A DNA stretch of 64,000 nucleotides. It comes from Escherichia phage UP19. The notes beneath the pieces were generated by a model. It was given only the letters and a program-made list of their open reading frames with translations, did not search any database and was not told the origin of the DNA. The stretch is taken from sequence record OX638288. One strand, given 5' to 3'. Below, piece after piece: positions 5,707 through 9,401 of the stretch (its first letter is position 1; every line of letters starts with the position of its first letter). The translations under genes were made by a program, and so were the position numbers.

Positions 5707-6156
5707 ATGAATACTTATATGACTCGCGGTAACGTTCTGTCTGCTGGTGCTACTACTGTTGCTTATGTTAAGAATGGCGAATACCAAAATGGTAAGCCTT
5801 CTAAAGAAATCTCAGCTCAGCCAGGCTTCTACTTCTTTGTTAAAGGTGAAGCAGATTCTCGTGTCGTAGCCGCTCGCTTTTATGTCGGTAACCAACGTTC
5901 AGCTCAAGGTCTTGATGGTATTGTGGCTAACATCCGTAAGAAACGTTCTCAATCAGCTCGCACTATGGCAGTGAATGGTGTGGTGTATGAAGTTCTTTAT
6001 GTGCCAGCTTCTAAAATGAAACCTCTGACTACAGGCTTTGGTAAAGGTCAAATTGCAATGGCTTTCACTCGCAATCATAGTTCAGACCTTCAGACACTGG
6101 AAGAAATGAACCGTATGTTGGCCGATAACTTCAAATTCGTTCTGCAGGCTTACTAA
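5707..6156 (+). CDS. ndd: Ndd nucleoid disruption protein
   Basis: 149 aa; C-terminus ...[11 protein letters not shown]...[20 protein letters not shown] matches recalled T4 Ndd. Confidence 0.9.
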
Positions 6157-6243
6157 TGAGTAATTTCCATAACGAACATGTGATGCAATGGCACCGTCAT
6201 AATCTGAAATTAACCGGTGTCTTCGGACGCCCTTGAGGAAAAT

Positions 6244-6393
6244 ATGAATATTTTACAAGGTTTTGCTGCGGGTATTTGGACTTATCTAGGTATTTGGACT
6301 ATTACGACGGGTGAAACTTCGGTCATTTCTCAGGCCATTCCACAATTCATATTGGCATTTGTTCTGATTCTACAGGCCTTTACCAAAAAATGA
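6244..6393 (+). CDS. small hydrophobic membrane peptide (49 aa), copy 1 of tandem unit
   Basis: MNILQGFAAGIWTYLGIWTITTGETSVISQAIPQFILAFVLILQAFTKK; hairpin plus GAGGAAA ribosome-binding site. Confidence 0.5.
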   Translation: MNILQGFAAGIWTYLGIWTITTGETSVISQAIPQFILAFVLILQAFTKK

Positions 6394-6538
6394 TTAAGAA
6401 ATCTTGGGTTACTCGGTAGCCCTTTCTTCTTTATTGGTAACACTGTATTACGGAGTAATTCCCATAACGAACATGTGATGCAGTTCTATCGTAACAATCT
6501 TAAAACTAAAGGCGTCTTCGGACGCTAATGAGGAAAAT

Positions 6539-6700
6539 ATGATTATCATAGTTTTTATTGAACTTATTACGGCTATAGTCTGTTCGGTTTGCTTCTTTTT
6601 AGGTGTGTGGACCCCTGGTCAGGTATTCTTAAGTTTTCTGTTTATTGGCTGGGTTCTTTCTACTTTTGTCGGTTTACTTAAGATGATTAAAAATGATTAA
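6539..6700 (+). CDS. small hydrophobic membrane peptide (53 aa), copy 2 of tandem unit
   Basis: MIIIVFIELITAIVCSVCFFLGVWTPGQVFLSFLFIGWVLSTFVGLLKMIKND; same hairpin plus ribosome-binding-site leader as copy 1. Confidence 0.5.
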   Translation: MIIIVFIELITAIVCSVCFFLGVWTPGQVFLSFLFIGWVLSTFVGLLKMIKND

Positions 6701-6833
6701 GAAAATCTTGGGCTACTCGGTAGCCCTTGCTGCTTTATTGGTAGCACTGTATTATGGAGTAATATTCGGTCTTATCCAAGTTGTGCTTTTTATTTCCGAT
6801 GTTATTATGGTTATTCATTCACTAGTATGGTAA
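6693..6833 (+). CDS. small hydrophobic membrane peptide (46 aa)
   Basis: [46 protein letters not shown]; overlaps preceding stop; the homologous position in unit 1 (6390..6419) is frameshifted. Confidence 0.4.
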   Translation: MIKKILGYSVALAALLVALYYGVIFGLIQVVLFISDVIMVIHSLVW

Positions 6834-6837
6834 AATT

Positions 6838-8217
6838 ATGGCTGATGTAATTGATACCCTTTTTAAACAATCCTTAGATGTTTACGATGATGCTTTTACT
6901 CGTCGTGACTTAAAAAGCATTATCGACAATGAAGCGCTGGCTTACGCAATGTATACTGTCGAAAACCGCGCCATTCCAAATATGATTGACGGCTTTAAAC
7001 CAGTGCAACGTTTTGTAGTTGCTCGTTGTCTTGATATGGCTCGTGGTAATAAAGAAAAATTCCACAAACTGGCTTCTATTGCAGGTGGTGTAGCCGACCT
7101 TGGATATCACCATGGTGAAGGTTCTGCTCAGGAAGCAGGGGCTTTGATGGCTAACACATGGAACAACAACTTCCCACTGTTGGATGGACAAGGCAACTTT
7201 GGTTCTCGTTTGGTTCAAAAGGCTGCGGCCTCTCGATATATCTTTGCTCGTATTGGAAGTAACTTTGCAAAAGTTTATAAGGATACGGAATATGCTCCGG
7301 TTCATGCAGATGTTGAACACAAGCCACCGGCTTTTTATCTGCCTATTATTCCTACTGTTCTTCTTAATGGCGTTTCCGGTATTGCAACCGGTTATGCAAC
7401 TAATATTCTTCCTCATAGTTTTGATTCTGTTAAGAAAGCTGTATTGCAAGTTCTTCAGGAAAAACGAGTAACCAAGCCGAAGGTGGCTTATCCGGAATTC
7501 CGTGGTGATGTTGTTGAGATTGAACCAGGAAGTTATGAGATTCGTGGAACGTATAAGTTCACATCTCGAACCCAAATGCATATCACGGAAATCCCATACA
7601 AATACGACCGTGAAACATATGTGGCCAAGATATTAGACCCTTTAGAAGACAAAGGGTATATCACATATGACGACGACTGTGACGAGAATGGTTTCGGCTT
7701 CAAGGTAAAAATTCGTAAAGAATATGAATTACCTACTGAAGAAAATAAGAAGCACGAAAAAATCATGAAGGACTTCGGATTAATCGAACGTCGTTCACAA
7801 AACTTAACAGTTATTAATGAGAAAGGTAAGCTCAAGGTTTACGAAGATGCTGTTGAACTGATTCGTGATTTTGTTGAGGTCCGTAAGACCTTTGTACAAA
7901 AACGTATTGATGGTAAAATCATCGAAACCGAACAGGCATTTAAACTGGCACTGGCTAAAGCCACATTTATCAAAGATGTTATTGATGGTGTAGTGGTTAT
8001 CCAAGGTAAGACCCGTAAGGTTTTAACCGAAGAATTAGCCGGTAATAAAGTCTACGGCGAATACGCTGATAAACTCGTAGCAATGAATATTTTCCATATC
8101 ACGTCCGATGAAGCTAAGAAACTGGCTTTGGAAGCCAAGGCTAAGAAAGAAGAGCATCAATACTGGAAAACCACTGATGTTGTAACTGAGTATGTTAAAG
8201 ATTTGGAGGCTCTATGA
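6838..8217 (+). CDS. 52: DNA topoisomerase II medium subunit gp52 (GyrA-like)
   Basis: 459 aa (T4 gp52 442 aa); N-terminal region resembles the GyrA/ParC cleavage-religation domain. Confidence 0.9.
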   Translation: MADVIDTLFKQSLDVYDDAFTRRDLKSIIDNEALAYAMYTVENRAIPNMIDGFKPVQRFVVARCLDMARGNKEKFHKLASIAGGVADLGYHHGEGSAQEAGALMANTWNNNFPLLDGQGNFGSRLVQKAAASRYIFARIGSNFAKVYKDTEYAPVHADVEHKPPAFYLPIIPTVLLNGVSGIATGYATNILPHSFDSVKKAVLQVLQEKRVTKPKVAYPEFRGDVVEIEPGSYEIRGTYKFTSRTQMHITEIPYKYDRETYVAKILDPLEDKGYITYDDDCDENGFGFKVKIRKEYELPTEENKKHEKIMKDFGLIERRSQNLTVINEKGKLKVYEDAVELIRDFVEVRKTFVQKRIDGKIIETEQAFKLALAKATFIKDVIDGVVVIQGKTRKVLTEELAGNKVYGEYADKLVAMNIFHITSDEAKKLALEAKAKKEEHQYWKTTDVVTEYVKDLEAL

Positions 8218-8318
8218 GCCTTGGAGTCGAGTTCTTGCTACTCTGTATCTTTGCTGTTATCCTAGGCCTGGCAACAGGCTTAGCTATAGGTTTAATAGCG
8301 GCCCACTTTAAAAAGTAA
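8214..8318 (+). CDS. small hydrophobic peptide (34 aa)
   Basis: MSLGVEFLLLCIFAVILGLATGLAIGLIAAHFKK; ATGA overlap with gp52 stop; followed by terminator. Confidence 0.4.
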   Translation: MSLGVEFLLLCIFAVILGLATGLAIGLIAAHFKK

Positions 8319-8340
8319 GGAACCTTCGGGTTCCTTTTTG
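8319..8340 (+). terminator. intrinsic terminator
   Basis: GGAACC-TTCG-GGTTCC hairpin followed by TTTTT. Confidence 0.7.
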
Positions 8341-8357
8341 GGTTTAGTGCAAAAAAG

Positions 8358-8387
8358 TGTTTACATCTGCTTTAAACATGATACTAT
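8358..8387 (+). promoter_or_regulatory. early/middle promoter cassette (GTTTAC -35, MotA-box-like TGCTTTA, TACTAT -10)
   Basis: GTTTACATCTGCTTTAAACATGATACTATAGACC; 48 bp identical to the cassette at 8703. Confidence 0.55.
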
Positions 8388-8435
8388 AGACCTATCAAAT
8401 AAATGAACTGAAACAAACAACCCGGAGATACAAAA

Positions 8436-8663
8436 ATGAAATTTAAAATCGAAAACGAAATCGTTAAAGCTAAAAATGCTCTGACTGCTAACAAACTGGT
8501 TGTAGATGGTATTGAATATGATATATGTGGAGTTCGTGAAGAAAAACCCGGTGTTCTGACTTTCTTCACAATGATTTTTAAATTTAAAGGTGACACAGAA
8601 TTCAAACAGTTTGATTTTGCCACTGAAGACGAAATCGAAGTTCGTAATCTGAACATTAAGTAA
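8436..8663 (+). CDS. hypothetical protein
   Basis: 75 aa ORF downstream of promoter cassette. Confidence 0.5.
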   Translation: MKFKIENEIVKAKNALTANKLVVDGIEYDICGVREEKPGVLTFFTMIFKFKGDTEFKQFDFATEDEIEVRNLNIK

Positions 8664-8702
8664 GTACTTTATTAGAGCTCTTGAAAAAGAGCTCAAAATA
8701 AA

Positions 8703-8732
8703 GTTTACTTCTGCTTTAAACATGATACTATA
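8703..8732 (+). promoter_or_regulatory. early/middle promoter cassette, duplicate of 8358 element, upstream of motA
   Basis: GTTTACTTCTGCTTTAAACATGATACTATAGACC. Confidence 0.55.
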
Positions 8733-8768
8733 GACCTATCAAATAAATGAACTGAAACGGAGATTAAA

Positions 8769-9401
8769 ATGTCTAAAATTACTTATATCATCAAAGCTTC
8801 TGAAGACGTCCTGAATGAAAAAACGGCTTCTATCTTAGTACATATCATCAAACACAACTTCATCACTTCAGGCGAAGTCCGTGAAGCCCTGAGTGAGCAA
8901 TTTAGTGCTGCGGTAGTTAATTCTAACATCGGTGTATTGATTAAGAAAGGATTCATCGAAAAATCCGGTGATGGACTGGTGGCTACAGGTGAAGCAATGG
9001 ACCTAGTTCAAAAAGCTGCTGACCTGTTCGCTTCCGAAAATGCTCCAGAGATGTTGGAAAAACGTAAAACTCGCAGTTCACGCGGTGTTACTCCTGAAAT
9101 GGTGGTACTGGCTGATGAAGTTAAATCTTTGTTAGAAGACCGTATCGAGATTCGTGAAATCGCTGAAAACCGTAGCAATCTTGAAGTTCGATTCGCTAAA
9201 CGTACCAACGGTATTCGTCAAATCGAAGTCCGTCGTGACGGAATGATGCGTATCTTCGGTTATAATATGACCGATAAAGAAAAACAAGTGTTTACTTCTT
9301 TGAATCTTGATGTTAAGATTAAGACTGGTGGTAAGAATACTTATATTGACTTCCAAAACGTATCATCTGAAGTTATCAAAACCGTAACCAACGCAATTTA
9401 A
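8769..9401 (+). CDS. motA: MotA middle-promoter transcription activator
   Basis: 210 aa (T4 MotA 211 aa); N-terminus MSKITYIIKAS...VNSNIGVLIKKG...KSGDGL matches recalled T4 MotA. Confidence 0.9.
   Translation: MSKITYIIKASEDVLNEKTASILVHIIKHNFITSGEVREALSEQFSAAVVNSNIGVLIKKGFIEKSGDGLVATGEAMDLVQKAADLFASENAPEMLEKRKTRSSRGVTPEMVVLADEVKSLLEDRIEIREIAENRSNLEVRFAKRTNGIRQIEVRRDGMMRIFGYNMTDKEKQVFTSLNLDVKIKTGGKNTYIDFQNVSSEVIKTVTNAI

Follow-up and report, generated by a model that had tools for sequence, protein, structure and literature searches.

The window analysed here is a 64,000-nucleotide stretch of DNA from Escherichia phage UP19 (OX638288), and the locus of interest lies between gene 52 and motA. 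The stop codon of gene 52 is overlapped by the start of a 34-codon open reading frame, referred to below as the mini-ORF, and this frame is followed by a hairpin and an early-type promoter. The features of the locus, in window coordinates, are listed here.

6838..8217, plus strand: gene 52, encoding the topoisomerase II medium subunit (phrog_551 match, E 7e-208; annotated in JS10, JS98 and T4)
8200..8228, plus strand: predicted RNA hairpin over the mini-ORF start (-17.0 kcal/mol, 96% of the ensemble)
8214..8318, plus strand: mini-ORF, 34 aa, ATG start, product MSLGVEFLLLCIFAVILGLATGLAIGLIAAHFKK (open reading frame and phrog_16377 match)
8317..8339, plus strand: terminator-type hairpin (8317-8336), AAGGAACC-TTCG-GGTTCCTT then TTT, or as RNA AAGGAACC-UUCG-GGUUCCUU plus UUU (pattern scan and folding)
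8360..8387, plus strand: early-type sigma-70 promoter TTTACA-N16-TACTAT, TG-extended, the promoter half of a PeSL cassette, driving the next ORF
8436..8663, plus strand: optional 75-codon ORF (phrog_10955), between two near-identical PeSL promoters
8675..8731, plus strand: second PeSL, hairpin GAGCTCTT-GAAA-AAGAGCTC plus promoter TTTACTTCTGCTTTAAACATGATACTAT, preceding motA
8769-9401: motA (phrog_1345 match)

Gene 52 comprises 459 codons, counted from the first start, and ends in CTA TGA at position 8217. These letters are shared with the mini-ORF ATG at 8214-8216, giving an ATGA overlap. The Shine-Dalgarno sequence of the mini-ORF, GGAGG, is located inside gene 52 at 8205-8209, 4 nt 5' of the ATG, and the TAA stop codon at 8316-8318 overlaps the terminator stem. 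The sequence-only reading had proposed a 34-aa frame in ATGA overlap with gene 52, and we find it at these coordinates with GGAGG upstream. Initiation at an internal TTG (8235) was dismissed, since no Shine-Dalgarno sequence is present there. An overlapping frame at 8192-8311 (39 aa) was also considered as an alternative and rejected; it is broken in ESCO10 and varies freely among relatives.

The product of the mini-ORF is predicted to form a single transmembrane helix. Residues 7-32 are hydrophobic, and the top 17-residue Kyte-Doolittle window has a mean of 2.72. The AlphaFold2 model is a single helix spanning residues 3-32 with a pLDDT of 92, so that both predictions agree with the one-helix product proposed earlier. 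The helix is long enough to span a bilayer, as is characteristic of single-pass membrane micro-proteins. It carries a Gly18-x3-Gly22-x3-Gly26 motif and ends in a basic C-terminus, HFKK, which by the positive-inside rule suggests a C-in topology. This basic C-terminus is not conserved in the Gaprivervirus homologue described below, and the topology is uncertain because the tail there, NKIDKD, is not basic.

We sampled the mini-ORF by searches anchored on its flanks, which are unable to favour intact reading frames, and found it intact in all Dhakavirus-type sequences recovered. It is present in 54 Dhakavirus-type and 27 Gaprivervirus records. Its position on the gene 52 stop codon, with a hairpin downstream, is the same in all the sequences examined (21/21 Dhakavirus-type and 4/4 Gaprivervirus). 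The 21 Dhakavirus-type sequences represent 15 haplotypes and contain no indels in the mini-ORF. Their 23 variable sites fall at third (17), first (6) and second (0) codon positions. Nineteen changes are synonymous and six are non-synonymous, all six conservative, against a synonymous expectation of 8.25 +/- 2.06; at least 19 synonymous changes were reached in 0/20,000 simulations (P < 5e-5). The dN/dS ratio between the window and ESCO10 is 0.04, and the other five frames of the region are interrupted by stop codons in most or all haplotypes. The sequence-only reading had made the gene depend on its presence in relatives and on codon-level conservation, and both are found. Judged by these substitution patterns, the mini-ORF is evidently under selection at the protein level, and we are highly confident that it is a real coding gene under selection.

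The Gaprivervirus homologue, MSFGVEFALLCIFAAIAGVIVGMFIGNKIDKD, has 32 codons and matches phrog_16377 at E 1.7e-9, over residues 1-26 only. Its existence rules out restriction of the mini-ORF to one genus. Residues 1-16 and Gly18, Gly22 and Gly26 are kept in Gaprivervirus despite saturated synonymous sites; over codons 2-16, the comparison of Dhakavirus with Gaprivervirus gives a pS of 0.95 and a pN of 0.12. The conserved N-terminal half of the peptide reads MS[LF]GVEF.LLC[IV]FA.

The mini-ORF is not new; it is a valid, already catalogued small gene and not a new kind of element. The peptide matches the phrog_16377 HMM at E 2.3e-21, with residues 1-34 aligned to profile positions 1-34 of 34, and the exact sequence is already present in NCBI and UniRef (A0A172Q275). 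This 34-aa Dhakavirus protein and phrog_16377, whose members include MN04 QIN95986.1, MX01 YP_009324151.1 and WG01 YP_009323460.1, represent the same gene at the same locus and are identical or at least 94% identical to the mini-ORF peptide. As remarked in the sequence-only reading, the mini-ORF is missing from the ORF track, an omission that matches the JS10, JS98 and IME281 RefSeq records. The frame is also unannotated in the IME08, Bp7 and VR5 records, and the Gaprivervirus form is unannotated in SP18, VR20 and VR25. A CDS is nevertheless annotated in 27/54 of the GenBank records that match the mini-ORF, and its absence from the ORF track reflects uneven annotation. Searches of Pfam, NCBIfam, PADLOC and PDB sequences returned no match to the peptide giving a functional lead. 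When the peptide was run exhaustively with HMMER against 1.84 billion cluster representatives, nothing beyond its own cluster came up; this negative says little, since a 34-aa query cannot score enough bits to pick out relatives at ~65% identity from so large a library.

The start of the mini-ORF is predicted to be enclosed in a stable RNA hairpin built largely from gene 52. GGAGG lies in its 5' arm, the AUG at 8214-8216 occupies the triloop and closing pair, and the gene 52 UGA (8215-8217) is inside. The last gene 52 codons, K-D-L-E-A-L, supply both the Shine-Dalgarno sequence and the 5' arm, and gp52 residues K454, D455 and L456 are invariant across six genera. The predicted fold has a z of -5.16, and 0/200 shuffles fold as well. 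It is kept in the variants (-9.8 to -15.4 kcal/mol) and in Gaprivervirus (-8.7 kcal/mol), and within Dhakavirus 98% of the alignment cells are paired. Double-sided covariation was not found in this hairpin within Dhakavirus, where the changes are one-sided and wobble-type only; nor did any pair of the predicted helices in Dhakavirus vary on both sides, with the shuffle control flat. A similar stop-codon hairpin occurs in three IMG/VR loci without the mini-ORF (L048, L049 and L053), so the start-site hairpin may have another primary role.

The arrangement resembles that of coupled cistrons. The start overlaps the upstream stop, the Shine-Dalgarno sequence lies in the upstream gene, and the start is occluded, the last as a thermodynamic prediction only. 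Since the start is held in a predicted -17 kcal/mol hairpin, the mini-ORF probably relies for its translation on ribosomes that complete gene 52. The earlier proposal of coupling to the gene 52 stop codon is in keeping with the ATGA overlap, the Shine-Dalgarno sequence within gene 52 and the predicted Shine-Dalgarno/AUG hairpin. On the strength of the predicted fold, we lean towards translational coupling acting through the hairpin.

Downstream of the mini-ORF, the hairpin stem is 8 bp long, four of its pairs being G-C, and is capped by a UUCG loop; the U-run counts 5 U with the stem end included and 5-7 in relatives. This hairpin had been described as a strong terminator; the hairpin and U-run are present as claimed, but the terminator, which folds at -11.4 kcal/mol, is of moderate and not of very high strength. 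The stem is kept in the 15 haplotypes with a single G-C to G-U change, and the loop is UUCG, UUUG or UUAG. A compensatory A-U to C-G change separates Dhakavirus (GGAACC/GGTTCC) from Gaprivervirus (GGACCC/GGGTCC). The G2285 record annotates this hairpin as a terminator.

Together with the early promoter that follows, this terminator makes up a PeSL cassette, of which it is the stem-loop half. PeSL denotes the promoter-early stem-loop cassette (Arbiol et al. 2010, PMC2839356; Comeau et al. 2014, PMC4122927), in which a stem-loop or terminator is followed by a TTTACW...TAYWAT early promoter, as is seen downstream of the mini-ORF. The promoter at 8360..8387 fits this published T4/PST consensus. 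PeSL cassettes lie at presence/absence and recombination junctions between close relatives and are likewise repeated in the window, which contains three hairpin-plus-promoter composites. The crossover in G2285 falls at the hairpin, and positions 8346-8414 are ~98.6% identical to some Tequatrovirus genomes. Among relatives, JS10 and NBG2 carry the phrog_10955 ORF, JS98 has a different ORF in its place, and IME540 and ESCO10 lack it. The PeSL is a regulatory cassette 3' of the mini-ORF, and the mini-ORF itself is flanked by a core gene and the first PeSL, not by two PeSLs. No MotA-box middle promoter (WWTGCTTYA) was found on the plus strand from 2282 to 24296, which takes in the entire ndd-52 unit.

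The same slot between genes 52 and motA is occupied in T4 by motA.1 (UniProt P39512, phrog_3487), titled 'uncharacterized 4.8 kDa protein in motA-Gp52 intergenic region' in UniProt. T4 motA.1 has the same 4-nt ATGA overlap (L007 2820-2969; gene 52 end 2823) and, like the mini-ORF, encodes a small hydrophobic product and has a hairpin and an early promoter downstream. The two differ in length (49 residues against 34), and at the T4 junction a GAGG 7 nt upstream is open, with no hairpin sequestering the Shine-Dalgarno sequence, unlike at the mini-ORF. The mini-ORF and phrog_3487 (MotA.1) gave no cross-match at E <= 1 and an hhalign probability of 0.7%. The sequence-only reading is to be corrected as to the T4 counterpart: the slot there holds a named gene, which corresponds by position only and has no detectable homology. 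The literature search on motA.1 yielded one incidental mention. Small hydrophobic peptides are hard to detect in proteomics. In the T4 proteome study, motA.1 belongs to the early transcript class and the protein-level class of MotA.1 is 'none'. A CRISPRi-ART screen in T4 found motA.1 dispensable, its knock-down having no fitness effect, and gene 52 required.

Small ORFs overlapping the gene 52 stop codon recur in at least eight clades. Elsewhere the slot holds hydrophobic forms of 23, 45/46, 46, 59 and 77 aa that are unrelated in sequence. The Mosigvirus occupant is a TTG-initiated 26-aa ORF, unannotated in all records inspected; its changes divide equally, 5 synonymous and 5 non-synonymous. 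The three genera Dhakavirus, Gaprivervirus and Mosigvirus share the fusion of the ORF stop with the terminator stem. The slot is empty despite a normal gene 52 in L043, in L048/49/53 and in Acinetobacter- and Krischvirus-type loci. T4 also encodes Ac (phrog_2501), gp52.1 (phrog_3595) and Ndd.2-Ndd.4, early small membrane proteins of 26-60 residues with one predicted transmembrane helix. As with the mini-ORF, their genes are early, clustered around gene 52, and often overlap at start and stop codons. None has a sequence relationship to the mini-ORF peptide, and Ac has an acridine-sensitivity phenotype (T4 record annotation) whereas the mini-ORF peptide has no known phenotype.

We weighed several other accounts of the mini-ORF. 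The simplest is that it is a chance frame in the 3' untranslated region of gene 52, where the DNA would be a spacer or a structured RNA before the terminator. The frame is indeed very short and is missed by the JS10, JS98 and IME281 RefSeq annotations, and the 156-nt region folds better than its shuffles (z = -4.06). However, the region has no Rfam match and its internal helices lack covariation, while the frame has a third-position bias, 19 against 6 changes (P < 5e-5), no indels, and stop codons in the other frames. These substitution patterns, and the persistence of amino acids across genera at saturated synonymous sites, effectively refute a chance frame, and we consider this account extremely unlikely. 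It is also quite unlikely that translating the mini-ORF matters while its peptide is incidental, with ribosomes modulating termination or read-through or protecting the mRNA 3' end. Such a role would fit the fused stop codon and terminator stem of Dhakavirus, Gaprivervirus and Mosigvirus, the unrelated hydrophobic ORFs in the same slot across genera, and the knock-down of T4 motA.1 without fitness effect. Against this, dN/dS is 0.04, and residues 1-16 and three glycines are conserved across genera, which shows selection on the peptide itself; roles for the peptide and for its translation are not mutually exclusive.

Alternatively, the mini-ORF and T4 motA.1 could be one gene, orthologues that have diverged. 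The separate PHROGs (16377 and 3487) without a cross-match at E <= 1, the profile-profile probability of 0.7%, the lengths of 34 and 49 aa, and a nucleotide similarity to Tequatrovirus that ends with gene 52 and restarts at the promoter all make this unlikely, even though the two share their position, the ATGA overlap, a Met-Ser start (ATGAG[CT]), a hydrophobic Gly-rich product, and the hairpin and early promoter that come next. A dedicated topoisomerase partner, coupled to gene 52 as a membrane tether or regulator of gp52/gp39/gp60, would account for the recurrence, in at least eight clades, of ORFs tightly coupled to gene 52 and for small membrane-protein genes on both sides of it (52.1 upstream and the mini-ORF downstream). 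Older work reportedly placed T4 gp39 and gp52 in membrane fractions, which counts in favour of such a partner; our literature search on membrane association of the T4 topoisomerase found nothing usable. We judge a topoisomerase partner very unlikely, given that some clades have a normal gene 52 but nothing in the slot, that its occupants are unrelated in sequence, and that T4 requires gene 52 but not motA.1.

Overall, we consider it probable that the mini-ORF is an early phrog_16377 gene for a 34-residue single-pass inner-membrane micro-protein coupled to gene 52. It would be transcribed as the final cistron of the early unit ndd-stp-...-52.1-52, which would end at the hairpin at 8317-8339. 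The Shine-Dalgarno sequence and AUG would be locked in a stable hairpin made from the last gene 52 codons until a ribosome that reaches the overlapping UGA at the end of gene 52 melts it and either re-initiates or lets a new ribosome load. Such coupling would tie mini-ORF output to gp52 synthesis. We infer that the peptide inserts into the membrane and oligomerises or docks. The sequence of its conserved N-terminal half and Gly18/Gly22/Gly26 face suggests helix-helix packing, which could serve self-association or docking on a membrane protein. By analogy with its neighbours Ac and gp52.1, the peptide probably plays a non-essential, accessory part at the inner membrane of the host. Our confidence in any specific molecular role is low.

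A broader and tentative view, which we regard as possible but rather doubtful, is that the junction between the gene 52 stop codon and the first PeSL is a 'cradle' for membrane micro-proteins, born de novo or swapped in repeatedly and kept by selection. The conserved C-terminal gp52 codons K-D-L-E (AAAGAYYTNGAGG) would provide a ready-made Shine-Dalgarno sequence and the TGA would give ATGA or TTGA, so that any inserted sequence would be translated. In a stronger form, the slot peptides may share a function tied to the topoisomerase or to replication machinery at the membrane.

The current view of T4-like early regions, rich in small membrane proteins and shuffled by PeSLs, is unaffected by the mini-ORF. 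The 34-codon gene deserves consistent annotation, since many records omit it, and T4 motA.1 gains a set of positional counterparts for comparison. A nonsense mutation that spares gene 52 offers a concrete target for probing such peptides. Most enterobacterial T4-like clades have a small hydrophobic ORF joined to the stop codon of gene 52, a core replication gene, with sequences unrelated between clades. Through these recurrent but unrelated ORFs, the gene 52 stop would offer a compact, naturally occurring setting in which to study the birth, exchange and retention of phage micro-proteins.

The window comes from a Dhakavirus, a genus of T4-like phages, and is 97.6% identical to JS10 (7700-8800) and 100% identical to IME281 (8100-8440). 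Along the + strand the genes keep the early order of T4: ndd - stp - small membrane ORFs - 52.1 - 52 - mini-ORF - 75-aa ORF - motA - arn.4. Gene 52 encodes the topoisomerase II medium subunit gp52. The sequence-only reading had placed a transmembrane mini-protein, coupled to the gene 52 stop and followed by a terminator, at this junction. That reading is supported, and the 34-aa ORF, the ATGA overlap and the hairpin are all correct at their positions.

Features of the gene 52 stop junction
8205-8209, + strand: GGAGG, Shine-Dalgarno of the mini-ORF
ending 8217, + strand: gene 52 3' end, ...GAG GCT CTA TGA, its stop overlapping the mini-ORF start as ATGA
8214..8318, + strand: mini-ORF, ATG start, 34 codons, MSLGVEFLLLCIFAVILGLATGLAIGLIAAHFKK
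8316-8318, + strand: TAA stop of the mini-ORF, merging into the hairpin
8317-8339, + strand: hairpin AAGGAACC-UUCG-GGUUCCUU plus UUU, fold -11.4 kcal/mol
8360-8387, + strand: early-type promoter TTTACA-N16-TACTAT, 3' of the hairpin

Upstream of gene 52, unlike JS10, the window also has about 300 nt duplicated in tandem (6151-6460 and 6446-6763; spacing 295-304 nt, 78-100% identity between copies). The duplication has left the 52.1 N-terminus present a second time, frameshifted or truncated (ORF 6404-6478), together with an additional 53-codon membrane ORF (6539-6700, phrog_9347). A perfect palindrome within the 52.1 coding sequence, GGGCTACTCGGTAGCCC (6710-6726), scores as terminator-like on both strands and reads GGGTTACTCGGTAGCCC in the duplicated copy (6406-6422).

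Presence in relatives and codon-level conservation, whose absence was to refute the earlier reading, both favour a genuine gene. Our sample drew 21 Dhakavirus-type sequences from GenBank isolates, from IMG/VR contigs and from a single metagenome contig; part of it was gathered by patterns anchored on the gp52 C-terminus, not on the mini-ORF, and it is therefore not biased toward intact mini-ORFs. All 21 contain the uninterrupted 34-codon frame with no indels, and the other five frames have stops in most or all haplotypes. The 15 haplotypes differ at 23 sites: 17 third, six first and no second codon positions. With every allele counted a single time, 19 changes are synonymous and 6 non-synonymous, the latter all conservative (L3F, V5I, V15I, L23I, H31N, K34N). 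If mutations of the same transition/transversion mix fell at random, 8.25 +/- 2.06 synonymous changes would be expected, and 19 was reached in 0 of 20,000 simulations. For the most divergent pair, the window and ESCO10, dS is 0.75, dN 0.03 and dN/dS 0.04.

A homologue is present in Gaprivervirus, where TH55 has a 32-codon ORF at the equivalent ATGA junction (MSFGVEFALLCIFAAIAGVIVGMFIGNKIDKD) that recurs in 27 more phage records, including SP18, VR20 and VR25. It matches phrog_16377 over residues 1-26 (E 1.7e-9), the family that the mini-ORF peptide matches over its full length (E 2.3e-21). Across codons 2-16 the two genera differ with pS 0.95, synonymous sites being saturated, and pN 0.12. Judged from sequence comparison, the peptide is under long-term selection across both genera. 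AlphaFold2 predicts a single helix (residues 3-32, pLDDT 92), with the hydrophobicity of a transmembrane segment. Gly18, Gly22 and Gly26 are kept in both genera while the intervening residues differ, and these retained glycines point to a functionally important Gly-x3-Gly-x3-Gly helix face.

The mini-ORF is already in databases and is a familiar kind of gene. The exact peptide has uncharacterised entries in NCBI and UniRef (A0A172Q275), and tblastn places it in 54 phage records at at least 94% identity. The earlier remark that the ORF goes uncalled holds for the JS10, JS98, IME281, IME08, Bp7 and VR5 records but not for 27 of the 54, where it is called as a hypothetical protein; the missing calls are an annotation inconsistency, no discovery. 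Pfam, NCBIfam, PADLOC, PDB sequences and Rfam gave no match for the mini-ORF or its product.

The 35 nt around the mini-ORF start are predicted to form a hairpin of -17.0 kcal/mol (96% of the ensemble; z = -5.16; 0 of 200 shuffles fold equally well), with GGAGG in the 5' arm and AUG in the triloop and closing pair. The gene 52 UGA lies inside this hairpin; a ribosome terminating there would have melted it, and mini-ORF translation would then be coupled to gene 52 through termination and re-initiation or through hairpin opening. Dhakavirus variants retain the hairpin (-9.8 to -15.4 kcal/mol), and L3F (CTT to TTC) preserves pairing, with one G-C becoming G-U and one G-U becoming G-C. The Gaprivervirus hairpin is weaker (-8.7 kcal/mol), in Mosigvirus a 6-bp stem places the UUG start in its triloop, and no structure is predicted for the junctions of T4, the MY742-type loci and Marfavirus. 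Translational coupling is probable; we infer it from the predicted hairpin, since double-sided covariation is absent within Dhakavirus and a similar hairpin persists at the gene 52 stop of L048, L049 and L053, which lack the mini-ORF. For this latter reason the stop-codon hairpin may have an additional role independent of the mini-ORF. In these three IMG/VR T4-like contigs gp52 is about 65-67% identical, the stop is TAA with no start codon, and the hairpin lies on equivalent gp52 codons (GAGGCUCU-nUA-AGAGCUU, -7.5 to -13.3 kcal/mol).

The terminator assignment is supported for the hairpin following the mini-ORF. Its stem is retained in 15 haplotypes with one G-C to G-U change (loop UUCG, UUUG or UUAG), differs from that of Gaprivervirus by a compensatory A-U to C-G change (GGAACC/GGTTCC vs GGACCC/GGGTCC), and is annotated as a terminator in its G2285 equivalent. 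Combined with the promoter that lies 20 nt further downstream, it matches the PeSL of T4-type phages, a composite of a stem-loop plus TTTACW...TAYWAT (PMC4122927). The window carries three such hairpin and promoter composites. Two near-identical ones (8317-8387 and 8675-8731; promoters TTTACATCTGCTTTAAACATGATACTAT and TTTACTTCTGCTTTAAACATGATACTAT, each with a hairpin before it) flank the 75-codon ORF 8436-8663 (phrog_10955), which JS10 and Tequatrovirus NBG2 possess and IME540 and ESCO10 lack, and in whose place JS98 has another ORF. This unit is a textbook PeSL-mediated cassette. The promoter and leader (8346-8414) share 98.6% identity with several Tequatrovirus genomes.

Two further observations concern these stem-loops. 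G2285 (vB_EcoM_G2285, MK327933, locus L031, 677-835), classed as Mosigvirus in GenBank, has a Dhakavirus-type gp52 3' end, the 34-aa ORF (100% aa identity) and the hairpin, and changes to Mosigvirus-type sequence (TTTTTGTGCATTTT) exactly at or directly after the hairpin, in what looks like inter-genus recombination at the stem-loop. In LF82-8 (L087) and JS09 (L088), the Mosigvirus terminator loop just after the mini-ORF stop is reverse-complemented (GGGAGC-CGAA-GCTCCC vs GGGAGC-TTCG-GCTCCC), a sign, on sequence grounds, that the palindromic element has flipped.

We surveyed the slot between the gene 52 stop and the following hairpin in 49 IMG/VR gp52 loci and in GenBank loci. In most enterobacterial T4-like clades a hydrophobic mini-ORF overlaps or abuts the stop, with sequences unrelated from clade to clade. 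The slot is empty in L043, L048/49/53, and Acinetobacter-type and Krischvirus-type loci.

Mini-ORFs in the slot, and second ORFs following them
Tequatrovirus and MY742-type loci (L010, L036-L038, L080): 49 aa, MotA.1 family
Mosigvirus: 26 aa, TTGA overlap (ATGA in LF82-8), annotated in no inspected record
L050-L052: 23 aa
L054-L057, L077: 45-46 aa
L044: 46 aa
Marfavirus: 59 aa
L059: 77 aa
L010 ~2706-2783 (MY742) and L011 ~2738-2818 (PWKp16, Marfavirus): second hydrophobic ORFs, MTFYGLFVGMIFFLWIIYLVIEYFF and MITLHGLFVGMVFSLVVITLIIDYTF

The Mosigvirus ORF (L008 2517-2597 in AV110; also L019-L023, L039, L081, L084-L088) is a hydrophobic frame of 26 codons, MSA[LI]ALGFL[GS]AIA[AV]LVIWLYWL[DV][KN]HD, and is intact in 12 of 12 sequences, with a TTG start (ATG in LF82-8) and a TAG stop fused to the GGGAGC hairpin. 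Its codon counts are 5 synonymous and 5 non-synonymous, and the one variant looked up was absent from a collection of 15 billion proteins. The second ORF, of 25-26 codons, follows the first with a further ATGA overlap and is recognisably conserved between the two genera; it is unannotated in PWKp16, and in MY742 an annotated 47-aa CDS (2642-2785) that begins at an ATG further upstream spans it in frame.

T4 motA.1 shares the position and 4-nt ATGA overlap of the mini-ORF and is likewise followed by a hairpin and early promoter, but it has 49 codons (MSPFIGITSAALVSGSILLAGLGVVPAVAGGLLAFGIQRVIMTVITVMQ, UniProt P39512) rather than 34. It falls in PHROG family 3487 with no cross-hit to phrog_16377, and profile-profile comparison of the two families gave a probability of 0.7%; we therefore treat motA.1 as a positional analogue, homology not being demonstrated. 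Public records repeatedly misname the 49-aa MotA.1 (P0009-P0023) 'flagellar motor protein MotA' or 'transcriptional regulator', evidently through propagation of the gene-name string 'motA'.

In T4, motA.1 belongs to the early transcript class and is unassigned at the protein level (PMC9697503 supplement), and a CRISPRi-ART screen scored it 'Not Fit' (-0.09) and gene 52 'Fit' (PMC11879866 supplement). A dedicated topoisomerase partner is a possible reading of the peptide but a disfavoured one, given that some clades have nothing in the slot and that T4 can do without motA.1. The product is probably an early, gp52-coupled, non-essential inner-membrane micro-protein acting via helix-helix contacts. 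The Shine-Dalgarno for slot ORFs sits in the gp52 codons K-D-L-E, invariant in six genera. The finding is of modest interest in that unrelated membrane mini-ORFs recurrently fill the gene 52 stop junction, which provides its own Shine-Dalgarno.
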